Shown here: positions 3,009 to 17,466 of the stretch, in pieces
Position numbering within the stretch: the stretch's first letter is position 1
Layout: each line of letters starts with the position of its first letter
DNA from: Pseudovirgaria hyperparasitica
Taxonomy: Eukaryota
DNA: 64,000 nucleotides
Reading direction: 5' to 3' (one strand)
Assembly (NCBI GenBank): GCA_010093815.1
Contig: ML996566.1
Position numbers and translations under genes: made by a program
The notes under the pieces: model-generated
Databases searched by the model: none
The model's input: only the letters and a program-made list of their open reading frames with translations
What the model was told of the DNA's origin: nothing

Positions 3009-4597
3009 TTAGGCTGAGGGCTCGCACAGCTGCCCGATGGCTTGTTGGATATCCGAGAAAAGGTCCAGAGCCCGACCGTCTGCGTAGATCTTGATAGACT
3101 CAACCTCTCTCCGCTCGGGACCTCTTCTTGGGCTGTCTACCTTTATAGGGCTTCTCGGTGGTGTCGTGGGCGTGACGACCATAGGTCGACTATGCTCTGA
3201 GTCGAGAAGTAAAGCAGCTGCAACATGTTCTAGCAATTTCTGACGAACTCTGAGGCGGCGATTCTCGGCCTGTTCAAGTTTGAGAATCCAATCGTCGATT
3301 GATGTATCGAGCTCAGCAAGTGCTTCTTCCTGTTTGAGCAAACTTTCGCGGCTGAAAACGAATTCGGTCCGCTTTAAGTAGGATATCATACGACAATGCA
3401 GTTTCTGTCGTCCATCCCGTAGGGACTTGTAAGTTTTTCGCAGGTATTCACAGCGCTCGTCAAGTGCACGTAATTCCTGTACGGAGTCAGTATTAGAAAA
3501 AATCTTTTTGAGATATATGACTAACTCTCGATAGCACAGTAACATCCTTTTTGTGTAGAACGGCAAACTTCTCAGCTTGATACATAGATTGTTTGTGCAA
3601 GCTTGCTCTCTCATCATCTGGCAGATGAATTAAGGCTTCAGACAAACGGACTCCAGGTGGTAGATGCCAGGTGTCAGTTTGGGCGCTTTTGCCCGTCTCG
3701 GAACATGTCCGACTTCTTTCTCTGTTAAGCTGCTTATACGGCCGACCACGGTCCATAATGGTATTATCTGACTGATTGCGACTATGCAATGGCCTCGCTT
3801 GAAGGCTTGAATTCATTTCACTGATGGGTGACTTTTTCCGTTCTGTTGCTGACGCGATCGCTCTGTGTGATATTGATCCGGCACCTTGCGAAAAGTTTGG
3901 GGATCTTCTGCCTTCCAGCGCTGGGGCACTCTGTGGGCCCGCTGGGAATAAAGGCGCTATCTTGCCATCACTGTTCATTCTTCTCAGAGCTGGAGAGCCT
4001 CTACGACTCATCAAAGGAGATTTTGGTGGTGGTCTGGGTGGCACATCGTTGTCGTCATCGACAAGAGTGGTCTTGGTATCAACCTTCAACACTGGCCGTG
4101 GTACTGCGGTAGGACTCAATATAGGAGATAGCGGCTTCTTGGAAATTTGGGATGTGTATGGAAGGGCTGCAGAATGTGGACTGTCCGAAGTGAAGATATC
4201 TCGATTCCAATGATCGGGACGTAGAGGTGCTGGACCTGTAACACACGAAAGTAGTGCATCTCCAAACGGTCCCTGATGCCAGGCATTGCCTGGAGCACTA
4301 CTGCATCTCTCGTGTCCAACGGGGACCGCCGAAGCGCTTCGTAAGAGGGCAGGTCGTCCCGGTATCGTTGCTTTACAGGTTAGACGATAGCTTGCGAATA
4401 GAGAGTCGACACTTACGAGAGTCGAGGGAATTTTCTTGGACAGTAGCCATGGCCGCACTCAATTCAGGCACACTGACCTTTCTTCGTCGATATAGATCCC
4501 CGCCCCACGGTTTCATTTGCCAGATAGATTGATGATGCTCCAAGGTCACGGCTGTGTCACTGAGCGAACTCGGCGAGCGACCTATAGCCAAAGCCAT
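3009..4597 (-). CDS. Uds1 (up-regulated during septation 1) domain protein, 3 exons
   Basis: GT-AG introns 4416..4371 and 3525..3477 join ORFs in frame. C-terminal coiled coil LSRELRALDERCEYLRKTY...LEQAENRRLRVRQKLLEHVAAAL matches the fungal Uds1 domain as I recall it. Start codon uncertain. Confidence 0.8.
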
Positions 4598-13727: not shown

Positions 13728-14057
13728 TCAGGCATTAGCTGCCTCGTAAACGACAATCCTGGACCGTTGTACAAATGGGCTGGACCATTTGGAGTTGCGT
13801 TTGAATATAATTTAGCTGCATTCGCATGGCGTTGGAAATTTGATAGTCTCTTATTGGTCCTTCGAGCGCCATTGATTCCTTAGCTAGCGATAGAACTCAC
13901 TTGGTAATATATAGGAAACGAAAACGGATGGAAAGATGACTTTTCTCTTTGAATTTCTCATCTTAGCACCGCGAGACTAGCAGGACAAGTTACAGTGACT
14001 GCATCAGTCTCACAGGCCGTGTGATAGTAATACCGACAATGTCAACGCCTGTCTGAA

Positions 14058-16942
14058 TCACCGAACTTCAGGTCCTTCCTTCTCAATCCCGTGAAAACTC
14101 TCCAAGATATCGCTCCCACCAAGGATGCCCATTCGTCGCTTGGATCTTCGCTTCTCCTCGCTCCAAACCTCATGGAACCTGATTGCAGCATCGCTCGCGG
14201 CCACCACGATACAGCCATCTTTGTCCCGTCCCAGTCTATCCGCACCATCCGTGTCTCGCTGACCTGTGTTTGGACTCCCAGGGTAGCCAATTGCGAATAA
14301 CGCCCTTGACTCGTCGTACCAGGGTATGGCAACAACCTGTTCGCACGCAGGCCAAGAGAACACCGCGATCCGAAAGGGGTGGTCTGGTTGTGCAAAACCG
14401 AAAGTTGCTGCTATCTCACGTCTCGTGTTACTCCATATAAGTGATGTCACTTGCGCCGCACAGTCAATAGTAGCTAGACCAGCGCCCGATATTGTGTGAT
14501 AGAAATGAATGCATCGGTCGTTGGACCCACCGCCGATTGCGACTAGTCCTCGCTGCCAGGGACAAAAGGCAATGGCTTTGACGGCGGCATTAAGGATCCA
14601 TTTGTGTTTCTCGCGACCGGCTGGAATGGATAAAACATTTCCATGACCTGGAACCACTGTCCACCGACGTTCACCATCCGCTCCAATCTCAACGTTGACC
14701 TGTGCAGTCATTTCAGGCGTAGGCGATATACAAAGTAGCTTTTTCGTTTCGAAAAGAAAACATGCATTATCGTTGCCTCCGGTGGCAAAGTACTCTCCGT
14801 CACTAGACCAAGACAATCCACAGACTTGCTGCGTATGAACTGTGATACGTGCGAGTAGTGTCATACCTCCGTGAAATCTTACAGCATGAATACTTTGTTC
14901 AGGTGGCCATTCGACAGAGTACAAGTATATATGTCCAGCTTCATCGCCTATCAGAAGCTCCTCGGTTGGAACCTGGATTTCTGGCGCCTTGATAGAGCCT
15001 CGTTTGACAACGCTCGGGCGAAATGACACGCATGCGATAGGGCTAGGCTGAGATGCCTCGAATCGCGGTTCTTCATCAAATAGGCTCCACAGAGAAATCC
15101 GTCCATCAGCTCTACCGACAGCAAGAATGGCCTGACCGCCCGCAGCGGAGGAGAATGCCAAGGTAGTGACATGACTGTTTGACAAGTTGTTCACACGCTC
15201 CGGAGTATCGACTCCCTTTTCCTCAGACCAGAGGTGCACGAAATTCCCAAGCCCTACCGCCAGGCATTTCGCAGTTGCAGAATAAGCCAGCAAGGAGCAA
15301 TAGAAATCATCGCGTAGCTGGGGAGCGTCGAGAACTGTATAAGTAGTCAGTATCGGTTTTGACTCGTAACGAACGCAATACATATCTAAATGGTATAATA
15401 GGCACTGGCTTGATATCCTTAATGGGCAGTCTCGACGCTGTTGACAAATTGTCAGCAAGATTGAGTTTCTTTCCTAACTCCTGAGTATTTGATGCTTGCT
15501 GAAGCAAGACACTCACAGGCCTTCCAAAGCCCATCCTGCCCGAAGGCTGTTCCACCAGCGACACTAGGGTCAGGAGTACAGCCACGGCTGGTCGATGCTA
15601 AGGCGTCTGAAGCATTGGTAGCACCGAGAATGCGGCATGACTGATCAATGTCGAATGCCGCGGCCAGTCGTCTCTCGTAGGTTTCGAGTTCACTTTCCGG
15701 ATCCGCCTTTTGCAAGAATTTTGATGTGTACAAAGGCGCATTAGTACCACTGCCAAGCAGACCTCCTTGGCCTGTCGAAATCCCCACAACACTATCACCC
15801 GCCACAGCGCTACCACCAACTTGCCAAATAGCACCATCGCTGATCTGGCGAGGGGTTGTGACGGACGGTCGTGAAGCTGTGAAAGAGTTGTTCCTAACGT
15901 TCGGACGGTTTTGGCTTTGCCGCAGTGCACGCAGCTGATTGGTAAGCCTACTACTCCTGCGCAACTGGCGAGCGAATGGGTTTGGGGTTCCACTTGCTCG
16001 GCGGTGCAGTCTTTCTGGATCGGTCAACGCACTTGTAGGCTTACTAGTAAAAAAGCTCTCTGTTGAACTGTTTGGTGAGCGCCGCGCAGGAATGAAACGG
16101 TCGGCCATACGACTTGGTGTCTGTACTTGCGGGGAGGAGCCTCCACGAGAGAGCCATTGGCTATGTCTTAACGGCGAGCCACGGTACCCACTCGGCAATG
16201 CAGACAGAGAAGTTACACGACGTTTGCAGGGGGTGAATAGAAATGCATCGACCGCCGGGGAAGCCTCAGTTAGAGGAGTTGTTACGCCAATGGGATAGGG
16301 GCCGATGTTTGGGAATGGTGAATGCTCGGGGGAGGTCAGTTCAGCCGTGGTATTTGGGTCCTTAGCCCTCCATCTACGCTTGGGACAAGGGGTGTAACCC
16401 GGAGAAAGTGAAATGGGGTCAAGGCGATAATAGTCCGTGTAAGGCGTCTCCGGCTCCAGGTCTTCCCTATCATTGACATCAGATGATGCGCTACTGGCGA
16501 CCGAAGAACCTTCCCCGTCGTCAGTGCCATCGCACTGAGGTGAGCCCTTCATAGTCATGCGTTGCAATAATCTCTTGAAGCTGCTGTAGTGTGTCGAATC
16601 GGTGCAGTGTGACTCCACATGAAGGTGAACATCGTCAGCCGACAATGTGCGCCGGCACGACACATTGTTCACGTTTCGACTCTCCGTCAAGCAGGTTTCA
16701 GCCCGTGGCCGGCTTCTAGGGACCTTCTGTGGCGAGTTCGGAGAAGATGGCATGAGTATGGCATGAGATTTCTCTGTCTGTCGAACCCTATATATCCTGG
16801 GTGTCTTTGGGGACGGCGTAGAAACCTTAGCTTCTTGTTTCTCCGTGTAGCGGTAGTCCTCGGACTTGTATTTTTTTGGCGACAAAGGGGGACTGAGCAC
16901 AGCTGGACGTGGCGGCGAGGCATGATTGGTGATATTGTTCAT
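14058..16942 (-). CDS. AMA1: Fizzy/Cdc20-family WD40 APC/C activator, Ama1-like (meiotic type), 3 exons
   Basis: C-box DRFIP, PFR-VLDAPQLRDDFY, HTQQVCGLSWS, AAVKAIAFCPWQRGLVAIGGGSNDRCIHF and an IR-like tail (EVR*). Introns 15516..15438 (GT-AG) and 15385..15337 (AT-AC). Start is the first in-frame ATG and is uncertain. Confidence 0.85.
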
Positions 16943-17466
16943 GCTGCGGGAGAACGTGTTCCTCGCGCCCCTGGCGCGGCCCTCCAATTCCAGGGGTCGA
17001 GACTATGCGACGTTTGAGTGGCTGGAATGATAGATTGACAGAATACGTCGGCTCGCTTCGAAACACTTGATGTATTCAGTGACAAAGGACTCGATCAAAG
17101 GACAAAGTTCCGGGAACGCAGTCGGAGCAGTCGAGGTTAGTAGGAAGAGAGGAAGGGGAGAACTGCATGTTCCGGCGTATGTATGCTTGGCGAGGAGAAG
17201 ATATGAGATGAGCGCAATGGATGAAAGTGAACTCTGGAACGATGATAAACAATGCAGTCTGTAGGTAGAGATCAAGGTTAAGAAAATGAGTGGTGTATCA
17301 ACATTAGCCAACAGCCAAGAAGAGCAGCAGCTTCATCCATTCTTTGCAGGTGGGTTGGTCCGCGCAGCACTTGCCTTCTCCCATCCTCTCGCCTTCTCAG
17401 CCTGCGAGCGATATTGACATCTTTCATCATCGTGAACCATAGGATTAAGTTATACTTTTCTACTTG

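Follow-up and report, generated by a model that had tools for sequence, protein, structure and literature searches.

A predicted gene for an AMA1-like activator of the anaphase-promoting complex/cyclosome (APC/C), a member of the Cdc20/Fizzy family, occupies the minus strand at positions 14058..16942 of the stretch of Pseudovirgaria hyperparasitica DNA analysed here (64,000 nucleotides (nt) of contig ML996566.1, assembly GCA_010093815.1; the window). It is interrupted just ahead of its probable WD40 propeller by a 49-nt intron that begins with AT and ends with AC. The coding span runs from an ATG at 16942 to a stop codon at 14058-14060 and, with both of its introns removed, its conceptual translation is a product of 918 amino acids (aa). 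Exon 1 (15517..16942) codes for the N-terminal region, including the C-box DRFIPARR, and ends in the residues ...GQDGLWKA. It is followed by intron 1 (15438..15516), which is 79 nt long and canonical (GTGAGT...GCTGAC...CAG), and by micro-exon 2 (15386..15437), whose 52 nt code for SSRLPIKDIKPVPIIPF and the first two bases of an Arg codon. The AT-AC intron (15337..15385) lies in phase 2. Exon 3 (14058..15336) supplies the third base of the Arg codon and continues with VLDAPQLRDDFY..., the probable WD40 propeller and the C-terminal residues ...EVR. The minus-strand letters around the intron are ...CCATTTAG/ATATGTATTG...GATACTGACTACTTATAC/AGTTCTCGACGCT, so that its own letters run ATATGT...TTATAC, with AT starting at 15385 and AC ending at 15337. 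The 5' splice site ATATGT (15380..15385) is a U2-type consensus with the first G replaced by A, and a branch-site-like TACTGAC (15346..15352) contains a putative branch A at 15347, 10 nt from the 3' end of the intron.

Several features point to an AMA1-like protein. Exon 3 alone matched the Pfam family PF24807 with an expectation value (E) of 1.2e-56 and a score of 192.6 bits, just below the curated cut-off of 200, and no Pfam family was found in exon 1. The product of exon 3 is 100% identical to the public protein P0001, 'WD40 repeat-like protein [Pseudovirgaria hyperparasitica]' (900 aa). The protein family is large, with 5501 matches at E <=0.001 in a search of protein representatives, and sources call orthologues meiosis-specific APC/C activator protein AMA1, Bcama1 or Meiotic fizzy-related 2, names on which a putative orthology to Ama1 would rest. 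One orthologue, P0020, matched the PDB entries of CDC20, FZR1, Slp1 and Cdh1 (E 1e-39 to 1e-26). Exon 1 contains MADRFIPARR; its motif DRFIPxR, which we take to be the C-box, has nearly invariant D, R, F and R residues in an alignment of 22 orthologues (A1) with the consensus PDRFIxxR. At the C-terminus the window protein reads ...EVR (14058-14066) and the orthologues end in IR, presumably the IR tail of Cdc20/Fizzy activators, with I424 nearly invariant and R425 invariant in A1. The ...EVR end may be a variant of this APC/C-binding tail.

The reading frame was followed under each splicing option. Removal of the 49 nt gives a single open frame of 918 aa (...PIIPFRVLDAPQLRDDFY in translation) and brings back the junction PFR/VLDAP, as a preliminary description of this DNA had proposed. 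When the AT-AC intron is kept, translation stops at codon 518 (stop codon 15307-15309), and removal of an overlapping 47-nt GT-AG pair (15381..15335) shifts the frame, which then ends two codons later at codon 520; both outcomes, and the coordinates of the two introns, had been described correctly. The inner pair consists of a GT at 15381-15380 and an AG at 15336-15335, the first two bases of exon 3. It had been regarded as a decoy, but we see no special feature in it: the GT is merely positions +5 and +6 of the donor, which are invariant in all 27 distinct AT-AC introns described below, and the AG is the A of the Arg codon with the G of the Val codon, present in nearly all orthologues. In-frame alternatives that the preliminary description had lacked were also found. 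A 182-nt GT-AG intron (15516..15335) skips the micro-exon and gives a 900-aa protein identical to P0001, an AT-AG intron shifted by 2 nt (15383..15335) gives PFRF, and there are five local GT-AG pairs of 40, 43, 46, 64 and 88 nt, with poor donors (GTGCCT, GTATTG, GTTCGT, GTCAAA). When intron 1 is kept, the frame ends at a stop at 15452-15454. The conserved PFR/VLDAP junction is restored only by removing the 49 nt, which supports the AT-AC intron.

Excision of the intron is seen in public sequence data. Four sequencing runs contain the locus, and their contigs were compared with the window over 13900-17300. Two of them (X1 and X2) are marked 'DNA?' and are possibly the assembly's own source, hence no independent check, while the other two (X3 and X4) come from one second sample and their kind is not on record. 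X3 and X4 each gave one contig with one joint, which skips 49 nt between 15335 and 15385; X1 and X2 gave no joint. The position of the joint is ambiguous by 1 nt, so that the skipped part is either 15337..15385 or 15336..15384. Base 15335 is retained in it, which rules out the AT-AG intron shifted by 2 nt. An antisense reading of the joint, as GT...AT on the plus strand, was dismissed, being non-canonical and having no relation to the conserved coding junction. The 49-nt skip is the sole joint in the X3 and X4 contigs over this interval, and no joint of 182, 40, 43, 46, 64 or 88 nt was found in them. The contigs pass straight through intron 1 without a joint, yet splice the AT-AC intron 52 nt downstream. 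The dominant assembled form is therefore one with the AT-AC intron out and the canonical intron 1 kept.

X3 and X4 are probably RNA-like. The depth of the X4 contig varies along the gene (27.3, 8.98 and 3.4), the contig letters total 23-27 M in X3 and X4 and 36-50 M in the DNA runs, and the share of sampled 31-mers present is 0.98 in X3 and 0.97 in X4, with 0.972 expected if only the 49 nt were missing; the missing stretch is also a perfect intron. The preliminary description had raised assembly error as a danger and the AT-AC junction as the decisive observation. Base differences and indels were zero in all four runs over the interval compared, and these RNA-like contigs carry the junction. 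A 53-letter contig of run X1 at position 17060 of the window has a 23-base loose end unlike the window and is probably a library or adapter remnant.

The intron is conserved among orthologous loci. Metagenome contigs were scanned with A1, which yielded 80 loci, and each locus was classed by the sequence immediately before VLDAP; three (L012, L018 and L019) were cut by contig ends and the remaining 77 were informative. An AT-AC intron in phase 2 was found at 38 loci, with 26 distinct intron sequences (27 with the window), 26 loci are intronless, and nine have a GT-AG intron in the same phase. Two further loci have AT-AG (L031 and L037), one has AT-AA (L030) and one has a GT-AG intron slid by 2 nt (L028). 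The AT-AC introns of the orthologues and the window measure 46-53 nt. Their donors are ATATGT (13 of the 27 distinct introns), ATAAGT (6), ATACGT (5), ATAGGT (2) and ATGAGT (1). Entropy is zero at A(+1), T(+2), G(+5), T(+6), A(-2) and C(-1), A(+3) is nearly invariant, and the interior positions reach about 1.6-2.0 bits, that is, saturation. Of the 27, 26 have a branch motif of the form CTRAY (TACTGAC, TGCTGAC, TGCTAAC and similar) whose branch A is followed by 10-11 nt, and the remaining intron (L001) has TACTCAC at 10 nt, read by eye. In the GT-AG orthologues the branch-to-3' spacing is 9-10 nt; L073 alone deviates, its last CTRAY match being 5 nt away.

Over the final seven codons of the micro-exon the entropy is 0.73 bits at the first codon position, 0.32 at the second and 1.62 at the third, and the encoded peptide, (R/K)xVPxxPF(R/K), is conserved, with wobble at the third codon position. 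From these patterns of substitution, the intron termini and the micro-exon are under purifying selection, with the remainder of the intron saturated. Conserved termini next to a coding-constrained micro-exon effectively rule out an assembly error or a pseudogene, and the presence of GT-AG orthologues in the same phase, together with the conserved termini, fixes the register of the AT-AC intron. Recurrence of the termini at the same codon phase in 38 of the 77 informative loci is far beyond chance.

The relationships of 93 WD40 sequences were estimated with a quick maximum-likelihood tree; the set comprised 63 distinct exon-3 translations (including the window) and 30 named proteins. Identical translations were collapsed, those of <300 residues were dropped, and two of the 32 named proteins chosen were omitted as no motif was found in them. 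Some AT-AC loci grouped with Pleosporales and the window; others formed part of a second Dothideomycete group or clustered with Alyxoria (Arthoniomycetes), with members of the Lecanoromycetes (Gyalolechia, Heterodermia and Psora) or with Helotiales (Leotiomycetes). GT-AG occurred only in part of the Helotiales-like group and in its sister clade. At least nine state changes are required on this tree, which is unrooted and has some long branches. When intron states are polarised with the accepted phylogeny of the fungal classes, AT-AC would be the most parsimonious ancestral state for these four classes. The preliminary description had inferred an independent splicing switch; the intron is no independent invention of this fungus, as the AT-AC pair is kept in orthologues grouping with four fungal classes, and the conservation of AT-AC in orthologues, which it had suggested looking for, extends to the 38 loci above.

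The intronless loci fall in several separate places of the tree (L021-L024, L026, L033, L035-L036, L038-L040, L043, L046-L047, L050-L052, L054-L055, L058-L059, L069-L072 and L074), and in the sequence examined their coding sequence is continuous through the micro-exon region. A natural series is seen among closely related Helotiales-like loci, each with 82-88% identity to a Cudoniella protein: AT-AA (L030), AT-AG (L031 and L037), GT-AG (L032 and L034) and AT-AC (L041 and L044) occur side by side in this tight group. The 427-codon WD40 exons of these seven loci are all intact. An A at +1 combined with a last base of G or A, as in L030, L031 and L037, is unexpected for U2-type introns. In L028 the intron (about 3950-4003; CGAG/GTATGT...GCAG/TA) sits 2 nt off the position that it has in the other loci. 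Its register is that of the out-of-frame GT-AG pair of the window, put in frame by two extra exon bases.

We conclude that 15337..15385 is a bona fide U2-type (type II) AT-AC intron, old and probably removed by the major spliceosome, and put the probability of this at about 0.85. The intron starts with AT and ends with AC, and its donor AG/ATATGT fits the U2-type consensus apart from position +1. A(+1) and C(-1) are able to replace the usual G and G in U2-type introns according to PMC1557818 and PMC11585973, which cite Parker & Siliciano 1993; the preliminary description had drawn on the same property. Removal by the major (U1/U2/U4/U5/U6) spliceosome is probable, given the type of the splice sites and reports that Dikarya lack minor introns and minor small nuclear RNAs (snRNAs). 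In the mechanism we propose, U1 and U6 would recognise the donor AG/ATATGT in the normal register and the branch A of TACTGAC would attack. Exons would then be ligated at the AC 10 nt downstream of the branch A and not at the AG two bases beyond, with the A(+1)-C(-1) pair substituting for the customary G-G pair. Proximity may decide which 3' site is taken, as the constant distance of 10-11 nt from branch to 3' end suggests, and this may be why AC is used in place of the AG two bases downstream. Ligation would unite the 52-nt micro-exon (...PIIPFR) with the WD40 exon (VLDAP...). The old phase-2 intron would have been kept in the orthologues that group with Dothideomycetes, Arthoniomycetes, Lecanoromycetes and Leotiomycetes, and elsewhere lost or turned into GT-AG.

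Several points weigh against this reading. X3 and X4 are not recorded as RNA and both come from one sample; their data are contigs and not reads, from which splicing efficiency, strand and rare isoforms do not follow. Clean mRNA would not usually keep intron 1 and extend over intergenic DNA, as these contigs do, and the 1-nt ambiguity of the joint permits TA-CA as well as AT-AC. The metagenomic loci owe their class labels to the named proteins with which they cluster in a quickly built tree, some of whose branches are long, and, the tree being unrooted, the word ancestral leans on the accepted fungal phylogeny. The absence of U11, U12, U4atac and U6atac from this species is taken from the literature.

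Other explanations of the locus were weighed against the same evidence. U12 introns have a short branch-to-3' distance, near 10-11 nt, and this spacing would, with the AT-AC termini, suit an intron of the minor spliceosome. We hold that reading to be extremely improbable. What we take to be the U12-type branch motif is not matched, the window and the orthologues having CTRAY, and the GT-AG orthologues share a spacing of 9-10 nt. The U12 5' splice site is /ATATCCTT (PMC5029451), which the window donor ATATGTAT does not match; the TCC of U12 donors at +4 to +6 occurs in none of the 27 distinct AT-AC donors, C at +5 or +6 in 0 of 27, and G(+5) and T(+6) in all of them. Ascomycota and Basidiomycota contain no convincing minor introns and have lost most minor snRNAs, as reported by Larue & Roy (PMC10639083). 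On both counts, the U2-like rather than U12 character of the intron and the lack of a minor spliceosome in such fungi, the preliminary description is borne out. Equally little credence can be given to an artefact or decay, in which an assembly indel masks an in-frame GT-AG intron or the gene is a pseudogene. The overlapping 47-nt GT-AG pair is just 2 nt out of frame; against this, the runs of two samples agree with the assembly throughout (X1 and X2 perhaps being its source), the same AT-AC arrangement recurs at 38 other loci, and the WD40 exon, of 425 codons, is intact, with 60-72% identity to orthologues.

The public annotation is a further alternative. The 900-aa model P0001 uses the 182-nt GT-AG intron and skips the micro-exon, reading ...GLWKAFLDAP, and either this model or one of the local GT-AG pairs might be correct. 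The 182-nt intron is canonical and in frame, its product being P0001 itself, five more in-frame GT-AG pairs lie nearby, and other models share the omission: of 120 public orthologue models listed, 54 keep the PF(R/K)V junction (45 by pattern and nine as a VLNAP variant) and in 66, including the model for this genome, it is missing or mangled. The 49-nt skip seen alone in X3 and X4 nevertheless contradicts the 182-nt intron and the local pairs as the main isoform, and the local donors all lack a G at +5. The micro-exon residues align to YIPSLPDRILDAP of human CDC20 and to KIPFKVLDAP of FZR1 in solved chains, so that models skipping the micro-exon lose a conserved part of the protein; the public model and the local pairs alike delete or alter residues conserved from fungi to these human proteins, and the micro-exon is under coding constraint in the AT-AC lineages. 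We therefore regard a correct public model, or use of a local pair, as very improbable. Two Pleosporales models (P0014 and P0017) read ...PPLRDDYY or ...VPLRDDYY, with VLDAPQ deleted. They resemble the in-frame 64-nt GT-AG option of the window and are probably another workaround of gene predictors for the AT-AC intron. Predictors restricted to GT/GC-AG skip or mangle the conserved AMA1 micro-exon, which explains a systematic annotation error.

It had also been proposed that the AT-AC intron is a switch: vegetative cells would splice it poorly or retain it, and its removal, confined to the sexual stage, would restrict the activator to that stage. AMA1 is gated after transcription elsewhere. Its splicing in Saccharomyces cerevisiae depends on Mer1 (PMC11585973), as the preliminary description had stated, and in Sordariomycetes FgAMA1 (PSC33) carries a premature stop, a feature that arose six times independently and needs sexual-stage adenosine-to-inosine editing (PMC10776026); FgAma1 is required for ascospore morphogenesis and not for meiosis according to the same source. 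Engineered introns with A(+1) and C(-1) splice 'less efficiently' (PMC1557818), retention here brings in the stop at 15307-15309, and a function would fit the strict conservation of the termini. In the sole transcript-like data, however, which represent one sample of unrecorded condition, the AT-AC intron is gone from the surviving contig path of both X3 and X4, with no retained variant listed, and it is the canonical intron 1 that is kept. A two-mutation barrier to GT-AG explains the conservation of the termini equally well, and several lineages have lost the intron or swapped it for GT-AG and kept the gene. The switch at the AT-AC intron is thus not supported, and we consider it quite unlikely.

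If splicing gates this gene, intron 1 (15516..15438) is the better candidate. Most transcripts in culture would then stop inside it, at 15452-15454, and the contigs of X3 and X4, unspliced there and spliced at the AT-AC intron 52 nt downstream, would be explained, with Mer1 (PMC11585973) and editing (PMC10776026) as precedents for gating of AMA1. We put this forward as a tentative possibility, on balance doubtful. Contigs lose minor variants and may mix molecules, the single sample is of unrecorded kind and condition, and the intron has good signals (GTGAGT, GCTGAC and CAG); its retention may be noise from a gene with hardly any expression, or stem from nucleic acid that is unspliced or a contaminant.

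The U2-type AT-AC intron of AMA1 can be compared with others of its kind, which are very rare, with 15 in human, six in mouse and three in fly (Sheth et al. 2006, PMC1557818). Animal examples are found in SCN4A and SCN5A, with borders conserved from human to puffer-fish (PMC1557818), and a strong /ATAAGT consensus is given for U2-type AT-AC introns in PMC5029451. The AMA1 intron resembles them in having AT...AC ends on an otherwise U2-type donor, in long conservation and in rarity. It differs from them in being fungal, in a lineage without a minor spliceosome, in its size of 46-53 nt with the branch 10-11 nt from the 3' end, and in its occurrence in orthologues grouping with four classes of Pezizomycotina, with natural AT-AG and AT-AA relatives. 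In S. cerevisiae a G-to-A change at the first intron base is rescued by a G-to-C change at the last (Parker & Siliciano 1993, via PMC5029451 and PMC11585973), and RPL30 has a nested AT-AC isoform with an atypical donor that makes up 1-2% of transcripts (Gould et al. 2016, PMC5029451). These cases share with the AMA1 intron the use of A(+1)-C(-1) by the major spliceosome of a fungus without a minor one, which for AMA1 is the probable reading. Unlike them, being artificial or an isoform of 1-2%, the AMA1 AT-AC intron is the sole route to the conserved protein and is under purifying selection.

Among filamentous fungi, AT-AC II introns have been hypothesised in xylanase genes (PMC1557818), and about 0.03% of junctions in SnowyOwl models are AT-AC (PMC4084796). 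These are likewise rare and likewise from Ascomycota, in genes other than AMA1. No description of the AMA1 AT-AC intron was found in the literature on fungal AT-AC introns, in a coverage that leaves out most subscription journals. The Mer1-dependent AMA1 of yeast and the edited FgAMA1 belong to the same gene family and share an obstacle at the RNA level before the intact protein. The present gene differs from both: the data available show its AT-AC intron spliced, and what is kept is the canonical intron 1.

The AT-AC intron of AMA1 is thus of a known kind, but unusually old, with strict selection on its termini and with intermediates alongside. It may even be a fossil of several hundred million years, either a relic of a U12 intron or an intron kept as one layer of a recurrent RNA gate on AMA1, an idea that we regard as speculative and unlikely. 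As a relic it would have come through the loss of the minor spliceosome in Dikarya by acquiring a U2-type donor and branch, with its AT-AC ends kept; literature searches on FZR1 or CDC20 and minor introns turned up nothing that speaks for or against a U12-type intron at this site in other eukaryotes. As part of a gate, slow exon ligation would be one layer, beside retention of intron 1, Mer1 in yeast and stop-codon editing in Sordariomycetes. If the idea is true, the Helotiales-like series of AT-AC, AT-AA, AT-AG and GT-AG would show that A(+1) is accepted with C, A and G, and such tolerance would be a property of the fungal major spliceosome at a branch-proximal 3' site.

As a naturally occurring and deeply conserved substrate, the intron lends itself to work on the pairing of the first and last intron bases by the major spliceosome, and the AT-AC, AT-AA, AT-AG, GT-AG and 2-nt slid GT-AG forms among its orthologues are ready evolutionary intermediates. 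Both yeast and Sordariomycetes gate AMA1 at the RNA level, and here an unusual intron stands beside a retained canonical one, which makes this gene a concrete locus at which to test how general RNA gating of AMA1 is in filamentous ascomycetes.

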